Shown: positions 18,984-50,007, counted from the first letter of the stretch. The stretch: 64,000 nt of DNA from Vulcanimicrobiota bacterium (GCA_963820825.1 CAWGBN010000006.1:448001-512000), one strand, 5' to 3'. Numbers and translations are program-made. Notes: generated by a model from the sequence alone, not told the origin.

Positions 18984-20438
18984 TCAACGTCGATGAGGCG
19001 ATCCAGGCTGCCCTGGCAAAGCTGACTTAAACCGAGAATCGGAAAAAATCGGCAATCCGTCCGCGGTGGACGCAGTCGAACGGTAGCACTTTAACAAAAA
19101 CCTATAATGTAAGCATCTTTGAAAACTATGGGAGTGTACGGGTCTGGTGGCTCGCACGGTCTTCAAAATCGCTGAGGTCGCCGCAAGGCGACTGGTAGGT
19201 TCGATTCCTACACGCTCCCGCCAAGAAGCCTTGATTTTCTTAGGGGTTTTCGCTCGTCGAGGATGCCTCGGTTGCAGAACGGTTGCAGAAGTATTTAAGG
19301 CGAGCTTCGAAGGGACGCTTTGGACGCGCTCGACCGCCTCCGCTTGCGCGCCTTCTAGTTCGTGGGTGTAGACCGCTAGCGTCGTGCTCGGCGTCGAGTG
19401 CCGCAGGATCGCGGCGACGGTCGTAACGTCGACGCCAGCGCGCACCAGCCAAGAACCGGTTGAATGGCGGATGCCGTGAAGATTGCGCAGGGAAAGGCCC
19501 GCGCGCCTTGCGATCTTATGTACCGCGTCGTAAACGGCACCGGGCGAATACATGCCGCCTCCCGCAGGAGCGAAAACAAAGCCCTCGTCGTCATAGAACG
19601 GCCCCGCAGCGCGCTTGTCGCTCGCCTGCAGCGCGTGTTGCGCTCGGAGAGCAGCGATCGCATTTTCGGAAAGCGCGATGCGTGCGACGAGATGTGTCTT
19701 CGTATCTTTGAGCCACTTACGGCCGGGGACATAGGCCACCGAGTTTTGAATGGTGGCGTAGCGTTCTTCGAAGGCTACGTCGTCCCAACGAAGCCCAGCG
19801 AGCTCTCCGCGACGCAGGCCCGTTTCGAAAGCGAATACGACCATCGGCCCGTAGCGCGTCTTCGACGCTTCGCTGATAAGCCGCCCTGCCTCGGCCCGCT
19901 CATAGTGGCGTGTGGGCTTCTTGCCGACTTGCGGCGCGGAGGCGCGTCGACGGCGAGAGCGTGCGACGGCAGCCACATTGCGCGCGATGAGTTCATGCTC
20001 GACGCCCCACGCTAAGAGCGCAGAAACGAGTGCAAGCGTGTTGCGAACGGATCGCGGCGACAATGGGCCGGCCCCGCCGCTCCAACCTTTGCTGACCAGG
20101 TCCGTGCGCAGTTGCGCTAGGTGAAGCGGCTTCAGCTTCGCGAGCTTGATTGTGGCGATTGTCTCGCAACGGCGAAACGTTTCGCGGTATCCGCGCAGAG
20201 TCGTCTCGGATAGTCCATCCGCTGTGGCCTCGGCCATGTACGCGGCAAAAACCTCGGCGAGCGTAAGCGTCTTAGCCACAAGGTCCGTTCCGCGATCGCG
20301 CGCCGTTAGTGCTTCACGTTCGGCCTTCTCGGCCTCTTTCCGCGTGGAGAAGGTGCCCAGGCTACGCCTCTCTACTGAGCCTTCGGCCCTGGCGAGGACG
20401 ACGGTATAGCGCCCACTCTTGCGCTTGTAGATGCTCAT
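18984..20438 (-). CDS. Tyrosine recombinase/phage integrase (ORF reads through attL, antisense over tRNA-Sec)
   Basis: N-terminal arm-binding-like region, ETGLRRGELAGLRW, K, LHGIRH, LRH..TTLAVYTH catalytic motifs; adjacent to tRNA. Confidence 0.93.
   Translation of the reverse strand: MSIYKRKSGRYTVVLARAEGSVERRSLGTFSTRKEAEKAEREALTARDRGTDLVAKTLTLAEVFAAYMAEATADGLSETTLRGYRETFRRCETIATIKLAKLKPLHLAQLRTDLVSKGWSGGAGPLSPRSVRNTLALVSALLAWGVEHELIARNVAAVARSRRRRASAPQVGKKPTRHYERAEAGRLISEASKTRYGPMVVFAFETGLRRGELAGLRWDDVAFEERYATIQNSVAYVPGRKWLKDTKTHLVARIALSENAIAALRAQHALQASDKRAAGPFYDDEGFVFAPAGGGMYSPGAVYDAVHKIARRAGLSLRNLHGIRHSTGSWLVRAGVDVTTVAAILRHSTPSTTLAVYTHELEGAQAEAVERVQSVPSKLALNTSATVLQPRHPRRAKTPKKIKASWRERVGIEPTSRLAATSAILKTVRATRPVHSHSFQRCLHYRFLLKCYRSTASTADGLPIFSDSRFKSALPGQPGSPHRR
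19130..19223 (+). tRNA. selC: tRNA-Sec (anticodon UCA)
   Basis: 8-bp acceptor GGGAGTGT/ACGCTCCC, 6-bp D-stem with TGGT loop, CTTCAAA anticodon loop, long variable arm GTCGCC-GCAA-GGCGAC, T-arm GTAGG-TTCGATT-CCTAC, G discriminator plus encoded CCA; TATAAT at 19103-19108. Confidence 0.93.
19269..19290 (+). promoter_or_regulatory. Putative integrase arm-type sites (CGGTTGCAGAA x2), element 1 left end
   Basis: Perfect 11-bp tandem repeat ~45 bp inside attL; related pair at 32353-32374. Confidence 0.65.
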
Positions 20439-20487
20439 TCAGGGGCCCCGCTGGACAGTAACTGAACAGAAAAAAGAACACCTGCGC

Positions 20488-21144
20488 TCATTCAGGGCCC
20501 TCCGCTTTGAGGATACGAGAAACGGTCATGCTGCTGGCACCGACCTCTGCGGCGATCGCACGAAGGGTTAGTCCACGCTCGCGCGCGTTGAGGATTGACT
20601 CTCGGATTGCATCGCGGTTCTCCTTGCCGCGTTCCCTCATCGTCGCGGCGCCGTTGCGTGATCCGCGCGCGCGGCCGTCGTCGGTCAGGTTCTGCGGGTT
20701 GCCGAGCTTCTTGCCGCGCGCCTTTGCCTGTGCCAGAGCGGCCTTCGTCCGCTCGCTGATCTTAAGCGCCTCGTTCTCCGCGAAGGTCGCCCGGACGTGT
20801 AACATCATCGCGTCATCGTCCGGCGCGTCGACGCAGGCGAACGCGACGCGCTGTTTGATTAGGCCCGAGACGAAGTGAACGTCGCGCGAGAGACGGTCTA
20901 GCTTGGCGATGACGACGACACCGCGGATGCGGCGAGCCTTGGCGAATGCTTTCGCAAGCTCGGTGCGATCGGTGCGCTTACCCGATTCGACCTCGGTAAA
21001 CGACGAGTCGAGCGTCAGACCGCGCATCGCACAGAACGCCTCGACGGCTGCCTGCTGCGCGTCGAGCCCGAGCCCGCTGTGCCCTTGCTTTTGGGTGCTA
21101 ACTCGGTAGTAGGCGACTGCGATCGGGCGGTCAAAGTTCATCAT
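20488..21144 (-). CDS. Serine recombinase (resolvase/invertase family)
   Basis: AYYRVSTQKQG.SGLGL, EVESGK, IAKLDRLSRD, E..KISERTKAAL..AK.RGKKLG, C-terminal HTH. Confidence 0.93.
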   Translation of the reverse strand: MMNFDRPIAVAYYRVSTQKQGHSGLGLDAQQAAVEAFCAMRGLTLDSSFTEVESGKRTDRTELAKAFAKARRIRGVVVIAKLDRLSRDVHFVSGLIKQRVAFACVDAPDDDAMMLHVRATFAENEALKISERTKAALAQAKARGKKLGNPQNLTDDGRARGSRNGAATMRERGKENRDAIRESILNARERGLTLRAIAAEVGASSMTVSRILKAEGPE

Positions 21145-21150
21145 GCACAT

Positions 21151-21180
21151 ATTGTACCATAACCTTAGACGTTCGTTCAA
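21151..21180 (-). promoter_or_regulatory. Sigma70-like promoter for the resolvase gene
   Basis: TTGAAC-N18-TACAAT with TGn extended -10 on minus strand, ending 7 nt before ATG 21144. Confidence 0.55.
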
Positions 21181-21210
21181 GGTATTGGGACAAGCCACTA
21201 GAAACCGGTA

Positions 21211-21780
21211 TCATCGCCCCCCACCCTTGTTCCGTCCGGGTTTCGTCCGGGTTGTTACTCGTCGCTCCGTCGCCGTGATGGATCGCTCGACCGCCTCCTG
21301 CTCGACCGAGGCAGTCGTAACGCCCCGGTCGCTGCCGTCGGAGGCGTCGTAGTAGTGCAGCAGCTTCATGCAGGCGTCGAGTCTCGTGCGATAGTCGGGC
21401 CAGGAATCGCCATATGGTCCGCCCGGCTTCTCAGCGCCCAACGCGATCGTCACGAGCTGTTCAAGCACGGCGCTCAGGAGGGGCTTCTGCTTCACATACA
21501 TGAGACGGAGTTCGGCGGCAATCCGCGCGCGGACGGTCGGCGCCGCGAGCGATTCTGCGATCGTAGAAGGAGCACGCCCCTCGGCCTGCGCTATCTCACG
21601 GATGCTCTTGCCCTGAACGCGCGCGATGGCACGCCGCTCCTGCGTAGGGCTGAGGCTTTCACGCCGAGCTAGTTCCGCTTTGAGGATGGATCGCACGGCG
21701 CCGTAAACCTCGGGCGAGTCGAGGACCTCGGAAACTCTAATCCGGGCCTTCAGGTCATCCACTGCAGGCTTCTCGCTCAT
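21211..21780 (-). CDS. HTH protein, possibly terminase small subunit-like
   Basis: GKSIREIAQAEGRAPSTI HTH followed by helical PDYRTRLDACMKLL; position after primase in a satellite-like cluster. Confidence 0.45.
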   Translation of the reverse strand: MSEKPAVDDLKARIRVSEVLDSPEVYGAVRSILKAELARRESLSPTQERRAIARVQGKSIREIAQAEGRAPSTIAESLAAPTVRARIAAELRLMYVKQKPLLSAVLEQLVTIALGAEKPGGPYGDSWPDYRTRLDACMKLLHYYDASDGSDRGVTTASVEQEAVERSITATERRVTTRTKPGRNKGGGR

Positions 21781-23810
21781 GCCGCATCCTCGGAACAGGT
21801 GCGGCACACGAAGGTCCCGTCGGCACAATCGAAGCCTAACGCGATGGTCTTACATTTGCGGCAGACCTTTCCGCGATACGAGAGCGGCCCCGTTCGCGCC
21901 GCATTCGTGCCATTCGTGCCAGGTGTTTCATCGCGGCGCGAATGGCGCGAATGGTCCTCACCTGCCGCGATTGTCATCTCTTGAGAAGGCGGATGCCATA
22001 CTGAGCCACTGCCGAAGCCGCGCCGTTCGATCCTGACGCCGAGCCGCCGCGCAGCGCGCTGGAGCGTTCGCTTCGAGATGCGCTGTTTGTCTGCTACGCC
22101 AAAGAGCTCACTCGCCGGCATCGGTTCGCGTAGCATCGAGTAGAGAAACTCCTCGGCGACGGTCCGGTCGTCCCCATCGTCGCGCTGTGCTACGGCCTCG
22201 TCGGCGCTAATCTCGACGCGCTGGCCCCATACCGCGCGACCTACCGGGTGTGCGAAGCACGGAATCGCGGCCTCCGCGATCGTGAAGGCGTAACTGTCGC
22301 CTATAGGTCCCACGTTGTTGCCAGCGTGGGCGAAGATACGCCGCGTCGCGTCGTCTGGGTCGAGCGCGACGCTTAACGTAGAGCGTCCGAGAGCCCCGAA
22401 TCCGACCGAGCCGATGCCCTTGTCCAGTGCCGAACCGGTCGCCTTTCGAACGTGCCGCACGATGAGTGCTCCCACGTTGAGCTTGCGAGCCATCGCGATG
22501 AACGGGACCATCTTCTCGTATGCCTCGGTGTAGCTCGTTGCATCCTTCACGCCGAGAATGCCAAACGTTCCATCCACGAACACGAGCGAGACGCCTTGCC
22601 CGGTTAGGCTCGATTCGATAGCCGGAAGGTCCGCAAGGAAAGAAACCTGACGCCCCTCGCCGTTCTCCGTTGCGTGGATGAAAGAAACTCGCTTGAGGTC
22701 CGCACCGGCTGCGATGAGACGCGGGACAAGCGTTCGCGCCGGATCGTCCTCGCAGGTGATGATGGCGACGCTCGCGCACTCGATTGGCTCGCCGTTGACA
22801 AACGGCGCCCCCGTCGTGATCCGAGCGATAATGTCGAGCGCCAGCATCGTTTTTCCCGTTTTCGTGACGCCCTCAAGCCATGTCGCTTCGCCGCGCGGGA
22901 TGTACGGCCGAACGATGTAGTCCGTCTCTACCGGCGCGATCGTATCGGCGGCGACGAGCCGCACGACACGGCCGCGTTTCTCTCTGTCGAATCTCGGCGC
23001 GCTTTCGATTGCCTTCGCGAGTACCTCGGCACCGTCGCGCTTGAGAAGGTCGCTCGCGTCGAATCCGTCATCGCGATTCGGATCGAGGTCGAGGGCCCGA
23101 ACGTCGTCGCAGATTGTCGAGAGAAGCGCCGCGCGCTGGTTTGCGGCCTTGCGCCCTGGTGCGTCGCAATCGGCGATAACGACGATTTTTCGGGCGCCAG
23201 TGAAGTGTGCGCACCATTCTTGGGGCCACTTGAAACTCGAGCCGCCGGAGTTCGTCGTCGCTGCGTAGCCCTGGTTGACGAGATTCCAAACGTCTTTCTC
23301 GCCCTCTACTACGACGATCGTCTTACCGTCAGCGATAGCCGTGCGAAGTTCCGGCAACCGATACGGTACGTGCGGAACGCCGTGGAGGTTTGGAGCACCG
23401 TCGGCGCGACGTTGTTTAAACACCTTACCGGCGGCCCGCTCGACGATGTAGAGTAGCTTACCGCTCTCGTCGCGGTATTGGTATGTTTCCGTCTCGGCCG
23501 AGTCGGTAGGTACTGTGCGTAGAGGCTGTCGTGAACCTCGCTCTGGTCGCTTGTCAATGAGCCAGGTTAGAGCCTCGGCCTCGTTCCGGGCGCTGCTAGA
23601 GTGAATGACGAGCGCGATGCTGCGCCCGCCGACACCGCAGGGATCGCAATGCCAAACGTCTTTGTCAACGTTCACGCGTAATGACGGATGCCGGTCTGCG
23701 TGCGCTGGATTCACGCAAGGCAGAACTGTGTCTCGCCCCAGGCGCTTACCTTCGGCACCGGGGCGTAGGAGCCGATACGTTTCGAGGACGCTAGGAAGGG
23801 CGTCGCCCAT
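21777..23810 (-). CDS. Primase-helicase (CHC2-like Zn finger, TOPRIM, AAA_25/RecA-like ATPase)
   Basis: CVNPAHADRHPSL..WHCDPCG, VVEGEKD, IADCDAPG, GVTKTGKT, LIVRHVRK. Confidence 0.88.
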   Translation of the reverse strand: MGDALPSVLETYRLLRPGAEGKRLGRDTVLPCVNPAHADRHPSLRVNVDKDVWHCDPCGVGGRSIALVIHSSSARNEAEALTWLIDKRPERGSRQPLRTVPTDSAETETYQYRDESGKLLYIVERAAGKVFKQRRADGAPNLHGVPHVPYRLPELRTAIADGKTIVVVEGEKDVWNLVNQGYAATTNSGGSSFKWPQEWCAHFTGARKIVVIADCDAPGRKAANQRAALLSTICDDVRALDLDPNRDDGFDASDLLKRDGAEVLAKAIESAPRFDREKRGRVVRLVAADTIAPVETDYIVRPYIPRGEATWLEGVTKTGKTMLALDIIARITTGAPFVNGEPIECASVAIITCEDDPARTLVPRLIAAGADLKRVSFIHATENGEGRQVSFLADLPAIESSLTGQGVSLVFVDGTFGILGVKDATSYTEAYEKMVPFIAMARKLNVGALIVRHVRKATGSALDKGIGSVGFGALGRSTLSVALDPDDATRRIFAHAGNNVGPIGDSYAFTIAEAAIPCFAHPVGRAVWGQRVEISADEAVAQRDDGDDRTVAEEFLYSMLREPMPASELFGVADKQRISKRTLQRAARRLGVRIERRGFGSGSVWHPPSQEMTIAAGEDHSRHSRRDETPGTNGTNAARTGPLSYRGKVCRKCKTIALGFDCADGTFVCRTCSEDAA

Positions 23811-24058
23811 TAGAGGCCCTCGCGCGTCGCCAGGAAGTCCGCGATCGCCTGTAGCGTGATTAGCCGACGCCGACCGATGCGAAGCGAGCGAATTTCGCCG
23901 CTTCGGCAGAGCGTCTTCATAGTGCTAAGCGAAACGCTGCAGCGTCTCGCCCCTTCGGAGAGTGAAACCGCGCCTATGGTCGCCGCGTTACCCTGCGGCT
24001 TAGGGTGAATGGCGCTCTGTGCACCGTGGCAAATTTCCATGACCTGAGGATGCGCCAA
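23810..24058 (-). CDS. Excisionase-like (HTH_17/AlpA-type) DNA-binding protein
   Basis: VSLSEGARRCSVSLSTMKTL.RSGEIRSLRIGRRRLI; start uncertain. Confidence 0.8.
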   Translation of the reverse strand: MAHPQVMEICHGAQSAIHPKPQGNAATIGAVSLSEGARRCSVSLSTMKTLCRSGEIRSLRIGRRRLITLQAIADFLATREGL

Positions 24059-24081
24059 GGAAACGCGCGAAAGAGGGGGGC

Positions 24082-24975
24082 ATGTCCACGCTGTTTTCAG
24101 AGGACGATACCCCCCGGAAACGGGCTACGTTCCGGGTTCAAAGCCTCAACGCGCTTGGTGAGTTTTCGGCACCACAAGAGTACCGGGTATTCGAGCTTAC
24201 CGACGCCGAGTTCAACTCCGCCCGTCAGGCCGTGGAATATTCCCGGGAGCGGATCAAGGCGAACGGCGGAAGGTGCGGCTATCGCAGCATCGATAAGCGC
24301 GCCGGTCGCGAAGGGTCAGGGTGGGCGAAAGAGCTTCTGAGCGGGGAGCCGCGCAAGTGGAGCTTTAACGCGGCCATGAAGCTCATGGGCGCCATTGAGG
24401 AGTGCGAACGCGGGCGAGTGCTTAGGGCGCTTTGCGTGAAGAACGGCACCAGCGAACAAGAGCTTCAGCGACGCCACGAGGATTGGCGGGCGGCTGCGAT
24501 CGCAAGCGCTGCGAAGAAGACCGGCGAGGTTGTCGGTGGAATTGAAGTCACGTGGGGCGGAGCGATTCCGCTGGAGTTTGACGATTTCGTCACTAGCCAA
24601 TGCGACAGAGAAACGATGCAGACGATTGACGGCGCTCGACATGCGCTGCTCTTTCGTCAAGTCGTCTCGAGCGGTACGAGTTCGGGCGAGCCGTATCAGT
24701 GCGCCATGCTCTACGAGCCGGATGCAGCATTCGCGATCGCCGCGACAATATCGCGTTACCTCTCCGATAAGGGGATGATCTACGGGGCCGCGGGCGAGCA
24801 GTACAAAAAAGTCTTCCCCGTGCTGTTGGAGCTTCTTAGAACAACCGATGATGACCTTCAATCGTTTCGCAATCGATGCCGGTGGACATTCTGGTCACAT
24901 TTCCGACGATGGGACCCGGAGGCCGTTATGGAAATAGAGCGTCGGATGAACGCGCTGAACGTGGGGATGGGCTAA
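24082..24975 (+). CDS. Hypothetical protein divergent from the xis-pri operon (possible repressor)
   Basis: 297-aa ORF with GAGGGGG RBS; position typical of satellite regulators; weak HTH-like segment YRSIDKRAGREGSGWAKELL. Confidence 0.55.
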   Translation: MSTLFSEDDTPRKRATFRVQSLNALGEFSAPQEYRVFELTDAEFNSARQAVEYSRERIKANGGRCGYRSIDKRAGREGSGWAKELLSGEPRKWSFNAAMKLMGAIEECERGRVLRALCVKNGTSEQELQRRHEDWRAAAIASAAKKTGEVVGGIEVTWGGAIPLEFDDFVTSQCDRETMQTIDGARHALLFRQVVSSGTSSGEPYQCAMLYEPDAAFAIAATISRYLSDKGMIYGAAGEQYKKVFPVLLELLRTTDDDLQSFRNRCRWTFWSHFRRWDPEAVMEIERRMNALNVGMG

Positions 24976-25048
24976 TAAGCATGATTGCATACTTGACATG
25001 GAATCGCGGGCCACAAGCTATCGGCGCCATGCCGCTTCCGCCTGCGCC

Positions 25049-25099
25049 ATGAAAAACCGCCTTTATTACGGCGACAACCTGGACATCATGCGCCGGTAT
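25049..25099 (+). pseudogene. 5' fragment of a site-specific DNA methyltransferase
   Basis: MKNRLYYGDNLDIMRRY is the conserved N4/N6-MTase start, then an abrupt fusion to an IS21 fragment. Confidence 0.6.
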
Positions 25100-25272
25100 C
25101 TTCATCACAGCCATCTTATCGAGATCCGCGGCAAGAGCTATCGCCTTCACGAATCGAGCGTTGCGGCACGCCAACGCAAGGTTCGGGAACCCGCCTAGCC
25201 AAGAAGGAATGCCATATAACTCCTTCTGAGCTAGACGACGGCTTTTGGCCGCATTTCAAGTGGCCACCGAGG
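25100..25272 (+). mobile_element. IS21-family remnant (istB 3' end plus probable right end)
   Basis: LHHSHLIEIRGKSYRL is the IstB C-terminal motif; TGGCCGCATTTCAAGTGGCCACCGAGG resembles an IS21 terminus. Confidence 0.65.
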
Positions 25273-25633
25273 CGGTACGCCGCCCGGGATCAAAGGCTTC
25301 TGATGCGTCGTCGAGCCAAGGGAGGCCCACCACTGACGAGCTGCCTTGCGATTTGCAAAACAGCTATGGCAGTGGTCCGCGCAGAGAGGGTATCCCTTTT
25401 GAGCGCCGGGCGCCTCTTATAATAGGCACCTGCTAATAGGCACCTGCCCCATGCGGTGGTCGCTGACGAGCTGGTATTATCGCTTCGGATGCTGCTAGGC
25501 CATTGCCTATCCGGCATTTCTGCGGGATGGCTAGAATCGCCGCGGAGTTCGCGAATTGGCGGCTCAGCCCTTTCCGAGATTGACTAACGTACCTTGCCTT
25601 AAAGGCAGAACGTCCGGAGGAGTTTACTTAACC

Positions 25634-26671
25634 ATGATTTGCTTAGATTCGATTAAGCGCGGCGCCACAATAGCAACGGTCTTAATGGCCGTCGTAGGGT
25701 GCAGCAACGGTCCCGGTATCTCTCCGTCGGCGATGGTAAGCGCGCCCACCATCAAAGACCTTGCGACGGGCGACCTACGGCCTCTTGGCCAGCACAAACT
25801 TCGGGGCAACGTGGCTCCTGCCGCCGCAACGCGCGGCATTTACGTCGCTCCGGTCAGTGCAGGCTATGTCCTTGGATACAAATACAATAACTCCAAGAAT
25901 AAAGGTACCATCTGTACCATCAAGGGTGCCCCGGGAAATAATCTCAGCGCGGATCAGCATGGAAACTTGATTGACCCAGATGCGGACCCCTACTTGCCTC
26001 ATATGATAGAGGTCTATCAAGGACGGGAGATGTGTGGGACACTTGCTGGGGAAATCCAGGACCCATACGGGCAGCCCTCCGACGCGGCGAGCGGGAACGC
26101 ACTAACACGTGAAATCGCAGTCGCAAATATATTCGATGACTATAACCAGCCAGGCAGCATTTCGGTCTGCTCGCTCGCAAGCGGTTGCACACGTAATCTC
26201 ACGAATCCGGCCATGTACGTCGTCCTTGGCGTTGCTATGGACCGCCGCGGGAACTGCTGGGCAGACGCAAATGACTATTCGAATAAGTCTCACTTAGTCT
26301 ACTTTGCGCACTGCAATGGCGTCGGAGCACTTGCAACAGGTTTCGAAAATACCTCGTACGGTGGCCTGGATGTTGACTCAGACGGCAATCTGGTAACCAT
26401 TAGTGCACACCAATACGCGGTTTACGTGTACTCTGGCTGTAAGCCAGCTTGTACACTCGTTGGCGGGCCAATGTCGTTGATTGGCGGTTCCATTTTTGGA
26501 CACTTGAACCACGCGGGGACGAAGTTCGCGGTTGCTGATATTACAAATCACCAAATCGATATCTATAACTACACGCCGACAAGTCTAGTCTATCAATATA
26601 GCTTCAACAAGGGGCTCTCGCCGAGTCAGGAAATCCTCGGGGTTACCTACAGTCCCGGCTCAAAACGATAG
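25634..26671 (+). CDS. Secreted Cys-rich beta-propeller lipoprotein
   Basis: VVGC lipobox; DPYGQPSD, GVAMDRRGNCW, GGLDVDSDGNL blades. Confidence 0.75.
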   Translation: MICLDSIKRGATIATVLMAVVGCSNGPGISPSAMVSAPTIKDLATGDLRPLGQHKLRGNVAPAAATRGIYVAPVSAGYVLGYKYNNSKNKGTICTIKGAPGNNLSADQHGNLIDPDADPYLPHMIEVYQGREMCGTLAGEIQDPYGQPSDAASGNALTREIAVANIFDDYNQPGSISVCSLASGCTRNLTNPAMYVVLGVAMDRRGNCWADANDYSNKSHLVYFAHCNGVGALATGFENTSYGGLDVDSDGNLVTISAHQYAVYVYSGCKPACTLVGGPMSLIGGSIFGHLNHAGTKFAVADITNHQIDIYNYTPTSLVYQYSFNKGLSPSQEILGVTYSPGSKR

Positions 26672-26841
26672 CGCACTTCAGCTCAGAGGAAACGCCTGGC
26701 TGAGATACGCCGGAAGAGCACCTACGGGTGATCGGCGAGGGAAAACAAAACCTGCGGTGCTCTTTCCTAAAAATGACGTTTTCCAGTGTGTACACGGAAA
26801 TAGGCAACATTTAGAAATTAACTCGTAAGGAAGGAAGTGAA

Positions 26842-27654
26842 GTGCGGCCCATAAAGGTCGGCATAATCGGTTTTGGGACAATCGGCCGGGCGATCGGCGC
26901 AAGAATTCGCGAGCACGCTTCCGTCAGCGATGTTTATGCCACTAACCGAAGTGGAAAGTTTCCGTCGGAACTCCATGGTTTTGTTACTGGATATGGGAAT
27001 CACGCTACGGCAGAGCGTACAGATGTCGTAATGCTCTGCGTAAAACCACTTCAGCTTAGAGGAGTACTTCGAGAAATAGCTGCTGCCTTAAATGGCGATA
27101 AGATCCTCGTAACTTGCGCAGGATCGTTATCCACTGTAACAATTTGCGATTGGCTCGGTAAGGCCGTTCCCGTGATTCGTGCGATGCCGAATATGCCGTG
27201 CAGGATAGGCCAAGGTATGACGGCTCTTGCCCGTGGGCACGGCGTGACATCCGAGCAGTTAGCGATCGTTGAATCTCTCTTTGCGGCGATAGGGCGTATT
27301 GCACTAATTGATGAGCATCTAATGAATGCTGCAACCGCGATCAGCGGCTGTGGCCCCGCATATGCGTACTTGGTAATGGAAGCGCTGTACGAGGCGGGCG
27401 TAAGACTGGGTTTACCAAGAGAAGTCGCGAGGCTGCTAGTGGCCCAAACCACGATGGGTTCTGCAAAGGTGCTTCTGGAAACGGATCTGAATCCGGCACT
27501 CTTGAAAGACGAGGTTGCAACCCCCGCCGGCTGCACGGTTGAGGGATTAGCAGAACTGGAAGAGGGGAGAATCCGACATGCCTTCCTGCGAGCCGCTGAG
27601 GCTGCAGCTAAGCGCAGCATAAGTCTCACAGCAGAGGCCGCTTCTGAGATGTGA
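26842..27654 (+). CDS. proC: Pyrroline-5-carboxylate reductase
   Basis: GIIGFGTIG, LCVKP, VIRAMPN, TAISGCGPAY, LKDEVATPAGCT. Confidence 0.92.
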   Translation: MRPIKVGIIGFGTIGRAIGARIREHASVSDVYATNRSGKFPSELHGFVTGYGNHATAERTDVVMLCVKPLQLRGVLREIAAALNGDKILVTCAGSLSTVTICDWLGKAVPVIRAMPNMPCRIGQGMTALARGHGVTSEQLAIVESLFAAIGRIALIDEHLMNAATAISGCGPAYAYLVMEALYEAGVRLGLPREVARLLVAQTTMGSAKVLLETDLNPALLKDEVATPAGCTVEGLAELEEGRIRHAFLRAAEAAAKRSISLTAEAASEM

Positions 27655-41520: not shown

Positions 41521-41689
41521 GATCGCCACGCTCCGCCCGGGCGTTTGAAGCGCGAATCTATCCAAGGTAGTTTCTGGCAGTCTCTGTCGGATTAGGCCAG
41601 CGGCTTGGCCTCCTTGCTCACGGCAATTGCGAAACTGTTTTTAGCAGCACTTTCGCAGATTCGACCGATTTTGGCCTAACGACCGTATA

Positions 41690-41910: not shown

Positions 41911-42112
41911 GCTTCTCTTTCGCTATTTACACGGTCGATGGCGTCGTCGTACTAAAGCAAGGTGGTCACGATCTTTCCGTAGTTCATGAGGCCTCCCGAT
42001 GCGGTCCGACGATGCCGCGGGCAATCAAGTACATGCGAGTATTGACAACGATAAAGCGCCAGATTTGGTACGGCCAAAAGCGCTCCATAAAGTGGGACTG
42101 CATGAGTCTCTC

Positions 42113-43543
42113 CTATTCCGGGATCAGCTGCCAGCCCGGCCGGGCTTGCAGCTTCCACATAAACGCATCGTGCAGCAATCGCTTAGTCCAGGCGCCCGCC
42201 AACCCGACGTCGAGTTCGCTCAAGCCAAGGTCGCGCCCGTACTCGGGATAGCGCTCGTAGTCGCGCGCAACCGGCACCATGATGATCGAGGCCGCCGAAC
42301 CAGTGAGCAGCGACTGTCCCATCGACGCAATGCAGGCGGCCGGCATCGCGGACAGCGGCTCGCGATGGCTCGGCTCGCCGCCGCGCGCCTGGTCGAGCAC
42401 GTTGAGCGCGACCGTGCGCCCGATGATGCCGGAGGCCATGCCGGTGCGCGGTGCCGTCGCGGTGATCGGCGAGCCGCTCGAGCCCTTGACCGATCTCGAA
42501 AGAGGATGCGGCGGTGCGAACGCGATGCCGGCGGCGTAGATGCGATCGTCATATGGGGATCGATAGATTGCAGGCCAATCGCGCCCGCGGTACTCGGGAT
42601 ACGTCTTCGCGGTATAGTCGGCATCCACGGTCATCAGGCCGTTGCCCTGCGTCATCTTGGGCGTCACGTCTTCACCCCCGACGCCGACGTACCTCAGCGG
42701 GATGCCGCGGAACTGCGGAATAAGCATTGCGAAATCGAACTCCAGCCACGCTGGTTCTTCGGTAGGCGTTTCGTAGAGTAGGCGGCCGGATTCGACATGC
42801 TTGACGCTCGCGGGAAGTATGGTGCGGATCTTCTCTTCGAAAAAGAGACCGCCGATGACGTCCGCGCCGCGAATGACGCGGTCGCCTTTGCGCGCTTCGA
42901 TTCCGTCGACGCCGAAATCGCCCGGCTGGGATTCGTTCGAGAGCCAGATCAAGTCGGCACGTTCGCGCAAGCCGCGCCGGCGCAAGTCGTGATTCACGTT
43001 CATGATGTATTCGAATGCGGCTCCCTCGCAGGTTGCGAGGGGGTGGCCCGTGCCAACGACGATCCGGGCACGCTCGCCCTTTTCGAGCTTTTTTACGATG
43101 TCGCGATATGCTTCGCCCGTGCGGGTCGCGTGCTCGACCGAACAGACGCTTTCCGAGTTCCCGGCCGAAGGTCCGAGTCCCGGGGTTCCCTCGAAGTTCA
43201 AGTACGGGCCGGTCGCGTTGATCAAAAAATCGTAGTCGAGGGTAGAGTGCTCTCCCGAGTCGAGTGCTACGGCGACGCGCCGCTGCGCGAGGTCGACCTC
43301 TTGTGCACGGCCCGCGACGTACTTGATCCCCAGTTTTGCGTATACCTCATCGAGCGCGAAGTAACATCGATCCGGCGACATCGTCCCGACGCCGACCCAG
43401 ATCAGGCTCGGGAACCAGGTGAACCGGTTTCGCGGCGAGACGACGGTGACGTCGACCTCGTCGAGGTGTTTGGAGAGATGCAACGCCGCGGTGTGCCCGG
43501 CAAAGCCGGCGCCTAATACGAGCACGCGTGATTTCATAATCAT
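42113..43543 (-). CDS. sqr: Sulfide:quinone oxidoreductase-like FAD-dependent oxidoreductase
   Basis: VLGAGFAG, WFPSLIWVGVG, YDFLINATG, TCEGAAFEY, FAMLIPQFRG, PRTGM, AACIASMG (two active-site-type Cys). Confidence 0.8.
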   Translation of the reverse strand: MIMKSRVLVLGAGFAGHTAALHLSKHLDEVDVTVVSPRNRFTWFPSLIWVGVGTMSPDRCYFALDEVYAKLGIKYVAGRAQEVDLAQRRVAVALDSGEHSTLDYDFLINATGPYLNFEGTPGLGPSAGNSESVCSVEHATRTGEAYRDIVKKLEKGERARIVVGTGHPLATCEGAAFEYIMNVNHDLRRRGLRERADLIWLSNESQPGDFGVDGIEARKGDRVIRGADVIGGLFFEEKIRTILPASVKHVESGRLLYETPTEEPAWLEFDFAMLIPQFRGIPLRYVGVGGEDVTPKMTQGNGLMTVDADYTAKTYPEYRGRDWPAIYRSPYDDRIYAAGIAFAPPHPLSRSVKGSSGSPITATAPRTGMASGIIGRTVALNVLDQARGGEPSHREPLSAMPAACIASMGQSLLTGSAASIIMVPVARDYERYPEYGRDLGLSELDVGLAGAWTKRLLHDAFMWKLQARPGWQLIPE

Positions 43544-44845
43544 ACCCCCTTGTCGCCAATGCCGGCGACGAAGCGCAGGTGCGCATCAGCGATGCGCAGA
43601 TCCGCCTGCGCGCGGATGAATTGTTGGCGGGCCGACGCGTTACGAGCTTGCGCATCGCGCAGCTCGAGCTGTGTGCCGACCTGTCCCCGGTAGCGAACCT
43701 CCGCGAGACGCTCGTCCTCGGCGGCGGACGTGGCAAGATCGCGGGCGGCGGCGACGCGCTCGGCGGCGGTCTGCAACTCCACGTAGCCTTCCCGCACGTC
43801 CAGCTCGGCTCGAGCGCGTAGCTCGTCGTACTCTGCCTGTGCCTGTGCGAGCGCGTCGCGCGCCGCGGCAACGCGCGCGGCCGTCGCGCCACCGTCGTAG
43901 AGGCGCCAGACCCCTTGCAGCGCGATGACGAATTGATTCGGTATAACCCGGCTGCACCGCCGGTTGGACGTTACCGTCGCTGACGGAGATGCCGACCGAC
44001 GGCCCATTTTCCGCCTGCGCTTCGCGGATGCTGGCCGCGGCAGCGTCGAGCGCGGCGCGAGCGGCTTGCAATTCGCCACGCTGCGCGATCGCCGCTGCCA
44101 CCAGACCCTCCACGCCGGGCATCGGAAGCCTCGTTTCCAGAGTGTCCGATGTTACGATGCGCGCCGTCGCGGGAAGGCCGAGCAGCGTGGCAAGACGTTC
44201 GTGCGCGATGGTGACCGCGCCGTGCGCATCGATAGCCCGGACGCGAAGGTCGGCGAGCTCGGTACGCGCCTCGAGCGCATCGAAGCGCGGCACCGTTCCG
44301 GCCGAGAAGCGCGCCCGCGTATCGTCGTACGAGCGCTGTCCGTCGGCGACCGCGGCGTCGGCCGCCTGGGATGCGGCCATGGCCGCGAGGTCGTCGACGT
44401 ACGCCTGCGTAACGCTCGCGACCAGTCCGCCGCGGGCTTCGCGTTCGGCGGCCGCCGCTTCCGCGTACCGTGCGTCGGCCTGGCCGGCGCGCGCGGCCCC
44501 TTCGCCGTCGTCGAAAAAAGTGTAGCGCGCGGTTACGAGCGGCAAGTTGGTCGCGTTGGGACCGAAAGGCAGTGGGCCGAACGGCGTTGAGAGTTGCGCA
44601 ACCGGATCCGAGGAGACGTACGAATCGCTGACGCTCAGAGTCGGCCCGCGGTCGCCGCGAGCGGCGCGCACGTCATCGCCGCGCACGCGGACCGCCGCAA
44701 TCGCCGCACGATATCCCGGATTGTGGGCTAGCGCCGTATCGATCGCTTCATCGAGCGAGAGCGTTAACGACTGCTCGGCGCGGACCGGCGCAGACATGAG
44801 GAGCAGCGCGAAGACCGCCGCGGCAAGGGAGAAGAGTCTATGCAT
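43540..44845 (-). pseudogene. TolC-family outer-membrane efflux protein, frameshifted near 43935
   Basis: LSLDEAI..ALAHNP N-terminal part (ORF 43640-44875) continues in another frame as LQGVWRLYDGG..RYRGQVGT.LELRDAQ (ORF 43540-44079). Confidence 0.78.
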
Positions 44846-47800
44846 GCCCAGCCTCCTCGACAAGCGGCGACGCAAAGCGGGCGTAGAGCAAGGGGATCGC
44901 CAGCACGGACAAGACCGCAGACGAACTCATCCCGAAGACGAGAGCCCACGCGAGCCCGCTCCAGACGGGGTCGGAAGCAATTACGACCGACGAGAGTACC
45001 CCCGCCGCGGCGGTCATGAAGATCGGCCGCGTGCGGGTGGTTGCAGCGGCGACCAGCGCATCTCGACGGCTCAGGCCCAGCCTGAGCTGATCCTCAATGA
45101 ACTCTATGAGGATGATCGAGTTGCGTACGACGATGCCGACCAGCGCGATCAGGCCGATCATCGCCGTCGCCGAAAAATAGATGCCGAACGGCGCCAGCAG
45201 CGCGAAGCCGGGCATGATGCCGATCATCGCGAGCGGCACCGCCGCCAAGACGATCAGTGGCGTGCGGAACGACCGAAAGCGCGCGACTAGCAGCAGGTAG
45301 ATGAGCAGAAATGCGAGCGCCATCGCGCGCCCGAGGTCGGCGAAGACGGTGAGCGTCATATCCCATTCGCCGTCCCAGGCTATGCTGTAGCCGGGCGGCA
45401 GAGTCAGCCGCGAGAGCGCGATCATCGCCTCGATAACGGCGTAAGTAGAGCTGCGTCCGGCGAGTTCCGCGCCGACGTAAGTTGCGTCACGATAGTCGTC
45501 CCGCTGCAGCGTCGGGGATTGTTGGGTGACCGCGACCCGCGCGATCTCTCCCAGGGGCGTGCTCCCTCCATTCCCCGCCGGTATGCGAATCTGCGACAGC
45601 GACGCTGGATCGCGGCGGAACTCGGATGCGAAACGAACGACGACGTCGACCGGGCGTACGTCGACCGGCGCGTGAATCTCCGATACCGTCGATCCGGCAA
45701 GCGCTATACCGAGGGTCTGTACGACTTCGGCGACGGAGACGCCTGAAAGCGCAGCTTTCACCGGATCGACCTCGACGTGGACCGAAGCCGGCAACGGCTT
45801 GTCGCTTGGATCGACGTCGACGACGCCGTGCTCGCCCTCGAGAATCGATTGGATGCGGGACGCAATTGCTCGGCGGATATCCGGATCGGGGCCGAAGACC
45901 TTGGCGAAGATCGTGTTGCGCACGGGCGGTCCGGGCGGGGTTTGCAGGACGCGCAGCGCCGCACCGAAGCGAGCTGCAACGGTCTGCAGTCGCGGACGCA
46001 GCGTTCGAACGAGGATTGCCGACTGCACGTGTCGCCGGTCCTTCGGCACGAGGTTCACGCGAATATCGGCGAGGTTCGGCGCGTTTCGGAAGAGGGTCCC
46101 CTGAAAGAGGCTGGAGAGATCGGGAACCGAGTTCGTGCCCACGAAAATCTCGTAGTTGCTCACCTCCGGCGTCGCTGCCAATTGCGCTCCGACGGCTTCC
46201 GCGATTGCGGTCGTCGCGGCGACGGTGCTCCAGGGCGGCGCATCGATGGTAACAAGGATTGTCGTTTCGTTGGCGCGCGGTAGCATGCGGAACTGCACGA
46301 GCTGCAGCGCCGGCAACGCAAGTGCGATCGCGAAGGCTAGCGCAAGAGCAACGAGAAAGAGCGAGCCGGCCTGCGGATTGTCCAAAAGACCTGCCAGCCG
46401 GTCACGGACATACGCGACCCACCAAGTCGTCGCGTGGGACGTTTTCAGCGTGCGCTTCCGCAGCAGATGGTAGGTTGCCCACGGCGTTACGGCGACGGCG
46501 ATGAAGAGCGAGGCGAGCATCGCTACCGGAACGTTAATCGGAATCGGCCGCATATACGGACCCATCATGCCGGTCACGAAGAGCATCGGCAGGAACGAAA
46601 GCACTACCGTGATCGTCGCAAGCGCAGTCGGACTAGCGATCTCGCCCACCGCAGCCACGGTCACCGCATCGCGCGGCGCGTTGGGCTTGTTCGCGTAGTG
46701 CCGGTGAATGTTCTCGACCATGACGATGGCGTCGTCGACCAGCAGGCCGAGCGCGAGAATCAGAGCAAAAAGCGTAATTCGGTTGATCGTTTGATGGGCG
46801 AGCATCCCCACGCCGAGGGTCACGAAGAGCGTGAGAGGAATCGCCGATGCAACCACGATCGCCTGGCGCCATCCAAGAACGAGTAAGAGCAATGCGACGA
46901 TGCCAATCGCCTCGACCAACCGTTCGATCAGCTCGTTCACCGCAAGGTTGGCCTTCTCGCCGTAGTCGCGCGTTACGCTCACCGTCACTCCGGGTGGAAG
47001 CTGCGCGGCGCGTACCGTCCCGATGATCCTTTCGGCGATATCAACGGCGTTCGTTCCGGGCTTCTTTGCGATCGCGATGCTGACTGCCGGCTCGTTTCCA
47101 AAAAGCGACTCCGTTTCTGGTGGCGCAATGGTCGCGCGGACGCTCGCGACGTCGCGCAGCGCGACGGGCATGCCGCCGTGAACGCCCACGATCGTCGCGG
47201 CGACATCTTCCGCGTTCAGAAAAGGAGCGCCGCTCCTGACGCTGAGCTCGCGTTCCGTCGAGCGCAGCGGCCCCGCCGGCGAGACGACGTCTGCCGTCCC
47301 AATTGCGCGGGCAACCTGCAGCGGGGAAAGCGCGTAGGCATCCAATCGCACCGGATCGAGATCGACCGCGACTTCGTGCGGCCGATCACCGTAGACCGCG
47401 ACGCTCGAAACGCCGGGCAAAGGTTGGATCGAGGTGATGAGCCGCTGCGCCGCATCCCCCAACTGACCGCGGTCGTAACGGGGGCCGTGCAGTGTCAGGA
47501 CGACGATCGGAATGTCGTCGGTGCTCATCGGCACGATCACGGGCTGCGACGCTCCCGGCGGCAAATCCGTAAGGTGCGCGAAGACCTGATCGTACAGATC
47601 GACAAAAGCCTTCGTGGGATCGTCGCCAACGTGGAAAAGCACGGTCAAGTACGAAGTGTCCTGCGTTGACGTTGCGTAGACGTGCTCGACTGCCGGGAAC
47701 CGCGCGTAGGACGCGCTCGCCTCGTTCGGTGACGGACCGCTGCACTTCGCGCGCGTCGGCACCTGGATAGTGCGTTACGATGATCGCTGCAGGGCGCACG

Positions 47801-47937
47801 ATTTGCGGATTTTCTTCACGTGGCGTCGCGAGGATCGCGAGCAGTCCCAGCGCGACGATTGCTATGACGAGCGTTGGTGTCAGTTTCGAGGTGAGAAAAT
47901 AACGGGCGATTCGCGCCGCCCAGTTTAGGTGTTCCAT
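44838..47937 (-). pseudogene. RND efflux permease (AcrB/CusA family), frameshifted near 47700
   Basis: TPREENPQI N-terminus in ORF 47386-47937; LGLLVDDAIVMVENIHRH, GIVVRNSIILIEF and RTRPIFMT in ORF 44838-47762. Confidence 0.82.
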
Positions 47938-47938
47938 T

Positions 47939-49081
47939 TCACCGGTCGATCGCGATCGTCGCGCCGTCGGTCAAACGTTCGAGATTGGTCGTCGCTACGT
48001 CGCGGTCTGCCGGACGAAGGCCCGTGACTTCGACGTCGTGCATGTCGGCTTTGCCGGTTCGGACCGGCGCGAAGACCGCTTTGCCGCCGGTAATCACGAA
48101 GACCCCGGTTTGACCGTCGCGCGTAACGAGCGCCTCGAGCGGAACCGTCGTGCCGCGCTCGGGCACTCCGCGGAGACGCACGCGCACGAACATGCCAGGT
48201 CGTAGTCCGCGTGTCGCGGGCAGCGCAATGCGCGCCAGCATGGAACGTAGCGCTGGGTCGGCAGGAGAGAGTCCTCGTACCGTACCGATCAGGATTCGAT
48301 CCAGATCGGCGGACTGGACCTCGACGCGACTGCCTTGATGGAGCGCGCCGGCATTTTCCTGCGGTACGGCGACGTCGGCTTCGAGTGTGTCGTCGCTCTG
48401 CACGGCAACGACCGGCGTCCCTGGGCCTACCGCCGTGCCCACATCGGCGAATCGCTCGGTGACGACGCCGTCGAACGGAGCTCGAATTATTCCGTTAGAG
48501 ACCGCAATCGAAGCGGCCTTGGCGGCGGCTCCTGCCTCTGCTGCGGCGTCTGCCGCCGCCGCGCGTTGCGCTTCAGTTTGCGTGGTCACCGCAGAGGCCT
48601 CTCGGAAATCCGCTTCCGACTGGTCGAGCTGTTGACGCGAAATGGCACCCTGCGCGTAAAGCCGCGCCATCCGACGTTGAGTGGCGCGCGCCAATTCCAG
48701 CCGCGCCTCCGTCTGAGCTACGCCAGCCGAGGCCGCAAGGCTCGTTTCGTGCGCGCCGGCGGCGCCGGCAGAGGCTGCGGTAAGTTGAGCGCGATAGGAT
48801 GCGTCGTCGATCGTCGCGATGGGCTGCCCTGCCGTCACGGGGTCTCCCACGCGCACGCGCATCTCGTTAACTCTGCCTGCGACGACCGCTCCCACCTGCG
48901 CGCTCTGCGCAGAGGCGACGCTGCCGGACAGTTCGAGCGTGCTGCCGATGGATCGAATGACGACCGGTGCGGTGTGCACCGGAATAGGTGGCGGCTCGAC
49001 CACTTTTCGCGCGCAACCTCCCGGTGCAAAAGCGGCGGAGAGTCCGAGAATTACCAAGAGGCGACGCAGACGACCCCTCAC
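47939..49081 (-). CDS. RND efflux periplasmic adaptor (MFP)
   Basis: GGC lipobox, GRV..M.V.VGD.V..GQ, IRAPFDGVVT, LRPGMFVRV; GTG start inferred, ORF stays open upstream to 49312. Confidence 0.85.
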   Translation of the reverse strand: MRGRLRRLLVILGLSAAFAPGGCARKVVEPPPIPVHTAPVVIRSIGSTLELSGSVASAQSAQVGAVVAGRVNEMRVRVGDPVTAGQPIATIDDASYRAQLTAASAGAAGAHETSLAASAGVAQTEARLELARATQRRMARLYAQGAISRQQLDQSEADFREASAVTTQTEAQRAAAADAAAEAGAAAKAASIAVSNGIIRAPFDGVVTERFADVGTAVGPGTPVVAVQSDDTLEADVAVPQENAGALHQGSRVEVQSADLDRILIGTVRGLSPADPALRSMLARIALPATRGLRPGMFVRVRLRGVPERGTTVPLEALVTRDGQTGVFVITGGKAVFAPVRTGKADMHDVEVTGLRPADRDVATTNLERLTDGATIAIDR

Positions 49082-49164
49082 GACGCCTTGCGCAAGCCCG
49101 CCAGTGCGATGAGGTTCGACATCAAGCACCGGCCTGTCAGTGACTGAAGGAGGTTCGCGCATAC

Positions 49165-49273
49165 CATAGATTTCGCGACGGATGCATTGGCCGCGAACCG
49201 GCACACCCGTGATTCCGGCGGCTATTCGCAGCAACCGCCCTGCGGCCCCGGACATAAATCTTGCGAGTCCCAT
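49165..49273 (-). pseudogene. Internally deleted DUF2892/YgaP-like membrane protein
   Basis: MGLARFMSGAAGRLLRIAAGI joined directly to GVPVRGQCIR; TM middle missing and no stop before the MFP. Confidence 0.45.
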
Positions 49274-49291
49274 CCGAGGATAGTATATACC

Positions 49292-49307
49292 ATACCCCGT
49301 AGGGTAT
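49292..49307. promoter_or_regulatory. CsoR/CstR-type operator
   Basis: Palindrome ATACCC-CGTA-GGGTAT between the divergent operon and the repressor gene. Confidence 0.78.
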
Positions 49308-49341
49308 TGCAATAAGCGAAGATAACCCTTACTATGGGCGC

Positions 49342-49662
49342 ATGGCTAAGACCCGCGCGTCGGCGAAACGGCCTTCCACCGAACGCCACCTCGATATCGA
49401 GGACGAGACTGCTACCGACATCATCTTGCGGCTGCGGCGAATCGAAGGGCAGGTGCGCGCAATCGAGCAGATGATTGAGCAGCGCCGTGACTGCCATACG
49501 ATTGCCCAACTGATGGGCGCCGCAAAGGCGGCCCTCGAGCGAGCGACGATCCAGCTCATGACGGCCAGCATGGCTGGTTGCCTATCGGCGGGCCGTAACG
49601 GAGCCTACGATCAGCGCGAACTCGCCAAGCTCACCGATACCTTCGTAAAAATTCTCGGTTAG
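49342..49662 (+). CDS. CsoR/RcnR-family metal/persulfide-sensing repressor (CstR-like)
   Basis: RLRRIEGQVRAIEQMIE..RDC..IAQ..AAKAAL..SMAGCL. Confidence 0.9.
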   Translation: MAKTRASAKRPSTERHLDIEDETATDIILRLRRIEGQVRAIEQMIEQRRDCHTIAQLMGAAKAALERATIQLMTASMAGCLSAGRNGAYDQRELAKLTDTFVKILG

Positions 49663-49814
49663 CTGAGAGGTTAGAGAACAAGAGTCCCAATGTCAGCGCG
49701 ACCGTCGGAAGAAGACCGGCGATCTAACGGATTTCGCGAGACTCACTGGGATTAGAAGTGACCGGACGGGACGCAAGAATGCGGAGACCCGTACAGGAGA
49801 CCGCGCGACCTTGA

Positions 49815-50007
49815 GGTTAGTGCAACGATTTGCTCAAAGATGGAGCGGTTCGCTACACCATTTACTACACAGAATCGGCAAAATTGGATTTCGGCGTTTA
49901 TTGGCAGCCGAAGGCTCTATGCGAAAACGGCCGGTATTATCAGGGACTTTCGAAGCCTAGAGGGTAGTGGCGGGGATGCTAGGAGAACGTCCTACACGCT
50001 CCCGCCA
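49815..50007 (+). repeat. Conserved cassette right end, copy C (arm motifs 49852-49874; core 49968-50007)
   Basis: Core TGGCGGGGATGCTAGG-AGAACGT-CCTACACGCTCCCGCCA, 2 substitutions versus copies A and B. Confidence 0.86.

Follow-up and report, generated by a model that had tools for sequence, protein, structure and literature searches.

A tRNA-Sec-anchored array of integrase-less units in a Vulcanimicrobiota genome and its probable derivation from an integrative and conjugative element

How can several stretches of DNA that carry no recombinase gene come to lie in tandem behind a single tRNA gene, each closed by a copy of the tRNA 3′ end? This question is raised by a 64,000-nucleotide stretch from the genome of a Vulcanimicrobiota bacterium (the window; GCA_963820825.1, CAWGBN010000006.1:448001-512000), in which the gene for tRNA-Sec, the equivalent of selC, is followed by four repeat-bounded units. 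Unit 1 has an integrase of its own and units 2-4 have none. We consider it likely, with a probability of about 75%, that the locus is an accretion array in which units 2-4 are deletion derivatives of an integrative and conjugative element (ICE), the attachment (att) arms having been retained in units 2 and 3.

Anatomy of the array at tRNA-Sec

The source organism belongs to an uncultured, soil-type lineage of the Vulcanimicrobiota/Eremiobacterota (Candidatus (Ca.) Cybelea-like) and is represented by a metagenome-assembled genome of 2.98 Mb in 9 contigs, which is 85% complete. Genomes are denoted here by G numbers, the present one being G000. The tRNA-Sec gene (19130-19223, + strand) was detected by ARAGORN and matches Rfam family RF01852 with 67.8 bits (gathering score 47). 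Its last 18 nt (19206-19223, CCA included) are the first copy of the 18-mer TCCTACACGCTCCCGCCA, which is the common att core and at this position the attL of the array. A pattern match returned five exact copies on the + strand, starting at 19206, 32486, 36900, 41893, and 49990, with core-to-core unit lengths of 13280, 4414, 4993, and 8097 bp; positions and lengths agree exactly with an earlier description of the window (the original prediction). No extra match with up to two mismatches was found in the window, and the chance expectation is 0.00 (100 shuffles). The second copy, which is both attR of unit 1 and the attL core of unit 2, is part of 24 nt identical to the tRNA 3′ end (TTCGAT plus the 18-mer; 32480-32503, +). 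The remaining cores mark the unit 2/unit 3 junction (36900-36917, +), the unit 3/unit 4 junction (41893-41910, +), and the end of the array (49990-50007, +). An intact tRNA gene stands at one end, and direct repeats of its 3′ end are found at every island boundary.

Directly before their terminal core, units 2-4 have a right (R) arm, which alignments place at 36656-36899 in unit 2, 41650-41892 in unit 3, and 49824-49989 in unit 4 (all +). That these units share a diverged, non-coding end had been predicted and was borne out, the arms being 166-266 bp long and 76-79% identical. Identity is 79.3% over 266 non-coding bp between units 2 and 3 (36656-36918 vs. 41651-41911), 78.7% over 197 bp between units 2 and 4 (36726-36918 vs. 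49818-50008), and 76.1% over 188 bp between units 3 and 4 (41726-41911 vs. 49824-50008). A direct repeat, ACTACACCGTTTACTACACAG, is found in the R arm of unit 2 at 36763-36783, in that of unit 3 at 41755-41775, and in that of unit 4 at 49852-49872 (there GCTACACCATTTACTACACAG); it occurs once to the right of a core, at 36989 in the left end of unit 3. The arm of unit 2 also contains a core-proximal half-dyad. An imperfect dyad of 41 nt extends across the core; its element-derived part, TGGCGGGGACGTTAGGA, mirrors the tRNA-derived TCCTACACGCTCCCGCCA (fold z -2.5 to -4.0). When 18000-52000 was compared to Rfam with E values up to 1, only tRNA-Sec and a sub-threshold symR were seen and nothing matched the R arm, which is thus not a known RNA.

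The left ends are of different types. Unit 2 starts with an arm that we call L_C (CCTCCAAATT...; 32504-32640, +; end alignment) and that has a single arm half-site, GCTACACCGTTT, at 32556. When this end was aligned with 11 like ends and two others for comparison, conservation across ~135 bp was seen in 10 of the 12 L_C-like ones. Unit 3 starts with an L_A arm (36918-37015, +), where a 19-nt insert, GGTCAAAACACTCCCTCCA, holds a degenerate second copy of the 3′ part of the core and is followed by the arm repeat ACTACACCGTTTGCTACACAG (36989-37009). No left arm is recognisable in unit 4, which in the left-end alignment matched neither L_A nor L_C nor L_I, the type found beside the integrase IntB (see below). 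As a side observation, the L_C arm (e.g., 32504-32640) has CACACTCCCTCCAAC at ~125 bp from the core, resembling ACGCTCCCTCCA, the degenerate core copy of L_A arms; this likeness suggests nested or rearranged old junctions.

The predicted lack of integrase, relaxase, and replication genes in units 2-4 was confirmed. Pfam searches of their open reading frames (ORFs) of at least 150 aa revealed no integrase, resolvase, transposase, relaxase, or replication domain, and the same recombination and replication domains were not found in 141 further stop-to-stop frames of at least 60 aa in 32013-50266. A six-frame PF00589 scan of the entire assembly returned five matches, of which the unit-1 integrase is the sole one in the window. 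Integration and transfer genes are thus missing from units 2-4. Because both att arms were retained in unit 2 (L_C and R) and in unit 3 (L_A and R), we classify these two as probable cis-mobilizable elements (CIMEs); unit 4 has cores on both sides and the R arm only.

Repeats of this kind might be created by mis-joining of reads, and the genome is indeed an assembly of 9 contigs with several frameshifted genes. Against this, the repeat copies are diverged (76-79%) and lie in unique contexts, and the same architecture is found in dozens of independent assemblies, single-contig chromosomes included. An artefact, which had been named as a possible refutation, thus has a negligible probability.

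Array content is different in each genome examined, and synteny with relatives is broken at the tRNA-Sec site. In G000, the shared chromosome returns only at about G000:C6:524,000, about 57 kb past tRNA-Sec. DNA homologous to this landmark (G000:C6:524,000-528,000) is found 10-13 kb past the tRNA in G133, G106, and G017, so that the variable region extends beyond the window. When 50008-64000 was compared to five single-core genomes, no match was found close to their tRNA-Sec.

IntB and the parent element in related genomes

The R arm was matched in 53 of 301 genomes of the order (G000 included), often with several copies on the same contig at distances of a few kb. The matches come from 49 of the 79 genomes of the same genus and from one genome in each of three other genera; some span just the repeat or the core-proximal 46 bp. 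The core, searched as a 17-mer with at most one mismatch, is present in 84 of 91 genus genomes. As the original prediction had anticipated for such a comparison, the number of units (0-10 cores per genome) and their order vary, and shared units are found at different positions.

The integrase expected beside CTACAC-type ends was found as well, and always together with the same 18-bp core and a left arm. This protein, IntB, is a tyrosine integrase of 387 aa, encoded on the opposite strand directly after the core and a ~110-bp left arm with ACTACAC repeats (G072, G099, G026, G087). The 200-bp R-type end closes the IntB element 32-62 kb further along; the element of G072 crosses a contig break, and we infer a length of ~43 kb for it. 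Among the 91 genus genomes, IntB occurs at 87-100% identity in seven full-length copies (90-100%) and one copy without the first 52 residues (G137). Additional traces are two copies cut by contig ends and broken copies in G245. The L_I left arm directly follows the core in all 12 IntB-related loci that include a core, and the sequence upstream is tRNA-type in 11 of these. Records bearing IntB are labelled Candidatus Eremiobacterota, Vulcanimicrobiota, or Ca. Cybelea, and in one case Acidimicrobiaceae.

According to Pfam, the 61.7-kb element of G099 encodes a relaxase, a NikA-like protein, T4CP, VirB4, VirB6, VirB10, SLT, and TraF, while the 32-kb element of G026 has a partial conjugation set (VirB6/8/9/10, SLT, TraF). 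An integrase, a relaxase, a coupling protein, and a type IV ATPase and channel, which together characterize an ICE, are thus combined within the att-bounded DNA of G099. Because of these conjugation genes, we consider the elements a family of tRNA-Sec-specific ICEs of Ca. Cybelea-like Eremiobacterota, of which the 200-bp R arm, judged by sequence, is the distal attachment arm. A 4.4-kb element in G137, with IntB, a TraF fragment, and an AbiEii pair, looks like an intermediate deletion stage.

In G000 itself, tblastn against the 2.98-Mb assembly (85% complete) did not find IntB, the best identity being 30%. Since IntB was not found, units 2-4 are probably stranded in this genome. The proposal that a recombinase acts on the units in trans is hence supported by IntB in relatives, next to the same core and an ACTACAC arm, but not by a cognate integrase in the genome that carries the units.

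We propose the following scenario. The attP of an incoming element would recombine with the 18-bp core, so that the tRNA would be regenerated and the displaced 18-mer left at the far end of the element; later arrivals at the regenerated tRNA would push earlier elements outward. The parent, an ICE of 32-62 kb, would be laid out as tRNA-Sec, core, ~110-bp left arm, IntB, conjugation genes, cargo, ~200-bp right arm, and core. The ACTACAC direct repeats in both arms might serve as arm-type integrase sites, and the 41-bp dyad, where element DNA mirrors the T-stem and acceptor 3′ strand of the tRNA, might represent inverted core-type sites. Unit 1 would be an integrase-bearing island of one att type and units 2-4 would belong to a second family. 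Internal deletion would have removed IntB and the transfer genes from units 2-4, leaving both arms in units 2 and 3 and the right arm only in unit 4. Such units would move only when IntB is provided in trans by a co-resident ICE, either alone or as part of a composite.

Beside IntB, at least two more lineages of tyrosine integrases, 33-39% identical to it, were observed directly beside the same 18-bp core, namely at the selC loci of G023, G036, G099, G053, G073, G095, G108, and G229. One and the same target is, by this comparison, used by several integrase lineages, including IntB and the unit-1 type.

Deletion and movement of the integrase-less units

The selC regions of 19 further genomes were analyzed together with that of G000, which gave 48 core-to-core units in 20 genomes. 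R ends were found on 37 of these, a count that is slightly low because the end in G026 has a variant sequence and was scored as "other". An integrase homolog is absent from 33 of the 37 R-ended units (tblastn with IntB and the unit-1 integrase, E 1e-4 or better); two have integrase fragments and two have full genes. The 33 integrase-less units are 1.2-23.8 kb long, with a median of 5.0 kb. The longest arrays have five R ends after the tRNA (G061) and nine consecutive cores on one contig (G098). Among 43 R arms, conservation is highest in the arm repeats and in the 45 bp next to the core. The left ends are of type L_I (beside IntB), L_A (with the 19-nt insert), or L_C (~135 bp, with one half-site).

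Traces of the integrase itself are preserved at these left ends. The L_A and L_I arms can be aligned past the arm repeat and through the IntB stop codon into 9 to ~70 bp of its 3′ end, beyond which each L_A/L_I group turns into its own cargo. The L_A signature was found on 12 metagenome contigs, 10 of them with at least 400 bp downstream, and a full integrase on none; one copy keeps a 66-aa integrase fragment with 56% identity to IntB residues 285-350. Cargo of the parent has also been retained: the G026 ICE contains, in its interior, the BKACE/FMN-reductase/CMD module that two short units, G078_u1 and G098_u5, carry as cargo (83-85% identity), and a unit of G067 has part of this module (81% identity). 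Because the module is flanked directly by the arms in the short units, deletions on both sides are required. Derivation from the ICE is thus indicated by arms and integrase remnants, and by shared internal cargo in short units of other genomes, not in the cargo of the window.

These remnants invite a simpler explanation, namely that each unit arrived as a complete, integrase-bearing ICE, was trimmed on site, and never moved in its integrase-less state. That the units are just decayed islands had been listed among the outcomes that would refute the original prediction, and the integrase 3′ remnants and fragments together with the shared ICE cargo go some way toward it. In-situ decay would also fit the fused units with an internal left-arm remnant (G245_u0, G098_u5), the pseudogenised cargo in this window, and the fact that IntB is missing from most array-bearing genomes. 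It does not fit the distribution of the L_A type. The 19-nt insertion is common to 17 closed and three open-ended L_A units, none of which has a full integrase, whereas the IntB-related loci carry L_I. Several L_A units can occur in one array (four in G061, five in G098). In G061, G222, G067, G085, and G096, an L_A unit is located directly beside the tRNA, and no IntB homolog of at least 87% identity was found there. For integration at tRNA sites, the tRNA-proximal position is usually taken to be that of the most recent arrival; these L_A units would thus be the latest arrivals.

Also difficult to reconcile with decay on site is a 3.4-kb integrase-less unit with the same boundaries in two species. 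G078_u1 and G098_u5, at array positions 1 and 5, show 91.9% sequence identity over 3383 bp, arms included; for the rpoB region, taken as the identity baseline of the two genomes, the value is 83.3%. A window gene tried first as baseline is absent in three of the four genomes. A second shared unit is at position 0 in G061 and G096 and at position 2 in G078. By this comparison, some integrase-less units have evidently spread between species in that state. We thus regard decay on site as the sole process to be unlikely.

A more far-reaching possibility, which we put forward tentatively, is that L_A units are self-perpetuating mini-elements that have no integrase, rely on IntB supplied in trans, pass as units from one Ca. 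Cybelea species to another, and exchange cargo. They might then relate to the ICE as miniature inverted-repeat transposable elements (MITEs) do to a transposon, and the arrays might constitute a tRNA-anchored gene-capture system. Such a role would be consistent with the 19-nt L_A signature never being seen beside IntB, with several such units per array, and with their often tRNA-proximal position.

The derivation of units 2-4 from the ICE by deletion, which we prefer, has to be weighed against several points. With the assembly being 85% complete, IntB could sit in the missing part. In unit 3, homology to the integrase 3′ end is restricted to ~15 nt. Assembly errors, and not decay, may account for the frameshifts in cargo genes. 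Two query proteins served to screen the 48 units for integrases; this screen is backed by Pfam searches of 77 representatives of 123 protein clusters (units up to 16 kb), which revealed one PF00589 domain, in a non-R unit, and otherwise only insertion sequence (IS) transposases, and by PF00589 scans of five array genomes, with no match inside the G061 array and one faint match (E 0.006) inside that of G098. Units were recognised by their arms, so that arm retention is partly an ascertainment effect. Finally, nothing close to units 2-4 of the window was found in the other arrays retrieved, where the best matches to their cargo are 66-72% identical and the cargo of unit 4 has no match, so that any mobility of their own is conjectural.

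The cargo of the window units bears on how they were acquired. Unit 2 encodes a lipoprotein-like secreted protein without Pfam family (32802-34148, - strand; 47% identical to the copy in unit 3) and an XRE-HTH/NB-ARC STAND/TPR regulator (33946-36570, +; Pfam), which is distributed over three frames (33946-34365, 34233-35222, 35134-36567). Unit 3 has an intact XRE-HTH/NB-ARC/TPR regulator of 893 aa (37324-40005, -; Pfam) and a lipoprotein-like secreted protein (40184-41443, +) to which no Pfam, PADLOC, or NCBIfam family could be assigned. The same divergent gene pair is thus found in both units, in mirror order and with 73-85% identity over matched stretches; the regulators are 80.6% identical over 1565 bp, inverted. 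PADLOC returned only generic HTH matches and no defence system for this recurrent regulator and lipoprotein cargo.

The body of unit 4 (41911-49823, -; Pfam, NCBIfam, left-end alignment) carries a different set, consisting of a CsoR-like repressor, an RND efflux system, and an FAD oxidoreductase. The individual genes code for the FAD oxidoreductase, which is weakly SQR-like (42113-43543, -), an OEP (43543-44926, -) and an RND pump (44838-47970, -), both split over two frames, a membrane-fusion protein (47939-49312, -), and a CsoR/RicR-like repressor (49342-49662, +). The split frames at 33946-36570, 43543-44926, and 44838-47970 suggest decay, or else frameshift errors of the assembly.

Units 2 and 3 could have resulted from the inverted duplication of a single unit within this genome, given that the gene pair is mirrored around the core at 36900 and that the R arms are 79% identical. 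However, the two left arms differ in type (L_C at 32504, L_A at 36918), and the R arms are direct repeats whereas the cargo is inverted. In addition, the R arms of these two units do not pair with each other in a tree of 38 such arms. The two gene families are the commonest cargo of the arrays, the lipoprotein-like family being the biggest protein cluster of array units (28 members) and the regulator family having 15 members; the regulator also belongs to a large paralog family in this genome (28 tblastn segments). We consider local duplication very improbable. The tree of the 38 R arms is star-like, with 3 of 35 inner branches well supported, and is uninformative on lineages and on co-segregation with left arms. 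Independent acquisition, for which end divergence and differing cargo had been advanced, is favoured by the three ends of the window not being grouped together in this tree; the cargo of units 2 and 3, with the common gene pair, is not of unrelated kinds.

Comparison with known systems and neighbouring DNA

The array belongs to the known category of CIMEs and accretions, and its mechanism is not new. Tandem accretions arise from integration, decay, and further integration, and in CIMEs of elements related to ICESt1/ICESt3 of Streptococcus thermophilus, attL and attR are kept while integration and transfer genes are lost, as described in PMC5704250 (citing Pavlovic 2004 and Bellanger 2011). As far as that description goes, both systems have stripped, att-retaining elements in tandem with other elements at one site; they differ in that the target here is tRNA-Sec, the host is a member of the Eremiobacterota, arrays reach 5-9 units, and no related ICE was found resident.

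A further parallel is provided by Dehalococcoides, for which PMC3146451 describes multiple tandem islands downstream of ssrA that are bounded by ~20-bp repeats and vary in number by strain; 15 islands lack an integration module and were proposed by the authors to be CIMEs. Following that account, both systems have repeats of a small-RNA 3′ end, conserved DNA upstream of each repeat, and an insertion point in the T-loop region. The Dehalococcoides islands are associated with a CcrB-type serine recombinase, transfer-messenger RNA, and integrative mobilizable parents, in contrast to the tyrosine integrase, tRNA-Sec, and conjugative parent described here.

In the Islander/TIGER collection, as presented in PMC4383910, 125 tandems of at least two islands are listed and only four of at least three, because each member needs its own integrase and tRNA gene fragment. 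There too, islands are bounded by a tRNA gene and displaced fragments, with a crossover in the T-stem region. Integrase-less units such as those reported here go uncalled under these rules.

The selC-associated islands of Enterobacteria use the same class of target gene (tRNA-Sec) in unrelated hosts and are not known to be related to the present elements. Distinctive for the present system are the target tRNA-Sec, the tyrosine integrase IntB on an ICE parent, the host phylum, and the excess of stripped units.

The locus had been called integron-like, and the resemblance is a real one: a one-sided, serial array lies beside one recombination site, and every unit is closed by a recombination site that is an imperfect palindrome, with the 41 nt of every R end folding as a hairpin. 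In an integron-like platform, a dedicated integrase at selC would capture promoterless cassettes via such folded end sites. This part of the original prediction has to be abandoned. The IntI profile TIGR02249 assigns 45.2 bits to IntB and 29.4 bits to the unit-1 integrase, with a cut-off of 265; IntI, attI, and Pc are lacking here. IntB rides on an ICE with conjugation genes rather than on a fixed platform. Between 1 and 13 genes were called per unit, in both orientations and including regulators, and in the window they are arranged as divergent pairs or as an operon with its repressor; the unit ends are attP-like arms of 110-250 bp with direct repeats. An integron-like origin is thus exceedingly improbable. 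The units can still be described as non-autonomous and as recognisable by their arms, but in our preferred reading they are deletion derivatives of an ICE rather than a cassette class of their own, and unit 4 has no left arm.

For the little-studied Eremiobacterota, an ICE family is hereby mapped precisely, with att site, both arms, and integrase. Its stripped, att-retaining derivatives far exceed the autonomous elements, and island callers that require an integrase per island would overlook most of this variable DNA. Because the arrays carry regulators, secreted proteins, and efflux and metabolic genes, they represent a main route of accessory-gene turnover in the genus. The system is well suited to a direct test of trans-mobilisation of integrase-less islands.

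Unit 1 (19224-32479) is a self-contained island of another att type, which we call type A. Pfam identified a tyrosine integrase (19240-20438, -), a serine resolvase (20488-21198, -), an HTH protein (21211-21828, -), a primase-like protein with Zn-ribbon, Toprim, and AAA_25 domains (21777-23810, -), P5C reductase (26842-27654, +), and a large LuxR-family regulator (27807-30491, +). No R-type arm is found upstream of the core at 32480-32503, and a 300-bp alignment confirmed that the end of unit 1 differs from those of units 2-4. Homologs of the unit-1 integrase with 77-88% identity occur at selC in G101 and G026; the type-A island is tRNA-proximal in the present genome and distal to the ICE in G026. 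We considered whether the unit-1 integrase might act on units 2-4, which appears unlikely given its 28% identity to IntB and the lack of ACTACAC repeats at the ends of unit 1.

The last core is followed by a left arm of a further element type, "F1" (GAATCGC..., with ACTCGGAAC twice; 50008-50113, +; sequence comparison). In G098, G033, and G095, an integrase remnant comes after the F1 arm, and in G000 nothing recognisable follows it. A LuxR-like C-terminal peptide, read by eye right after the core at 49990, was dropped because that frame has no Pfam match.

A sixth exact copy of the 18-mer was found on a different contig of the same assembly, C4 (24.5 kb), at G000:C4:22771-22788 (-). It is flanked by an R arm of just 46 bp and, on its other side, by a decayed arm of the L_A type (C4:22713-22816, -). 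About 3.6 kb away, within the region of interest G000:C4:19097-22816 (locus L146, 7097-10816), there is a 50-nt tRNA-Sec fragment that extends from the anticodon loop to the T loop and ends exactly where the 18-mer would start. Genes between or beside the 18-mer and this fragment code for a cupin, an FAD monooxygenase, an epimerase, a 1297-aa nSTAND1-TPR protein, and a TIR protein. DNA with 90.6% identity to C4:22946-23866 is found ~450 bp past tRNA-Sec in G025. The C4 locus may be the selC region of a variant strain, or else a second site.

Directly past the array, a solitary gene codes for a Cas4-like PD-(D/E)XK nuclease (50416-51183). An IS3-type element (51620-52890) with an ORF containing rve and HTH_21 domains (52004-52828) is located in the variable DNA past the last core, and copies with 86% identity occur at two sites in G025. 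Between them, at 51393-51500, there is a short repeat (50-107 bp, 75-96% identity) that recurs at many loci in each of the five relatives searched. A repeat of ~100-190 bp is found at 18561-18749, a short way upstream of tRNA-Sec, and in opposite orientation at 53462-53565; G133 has several copies with 80-97% identity, and this may be a MITE-like element. Finally, part of a gene at 9200-9700 matches dozens of paralogous loci per relative genome (68-77% identity), which marks it, on sequence evidence, as a member of a very large gene family in this genus.

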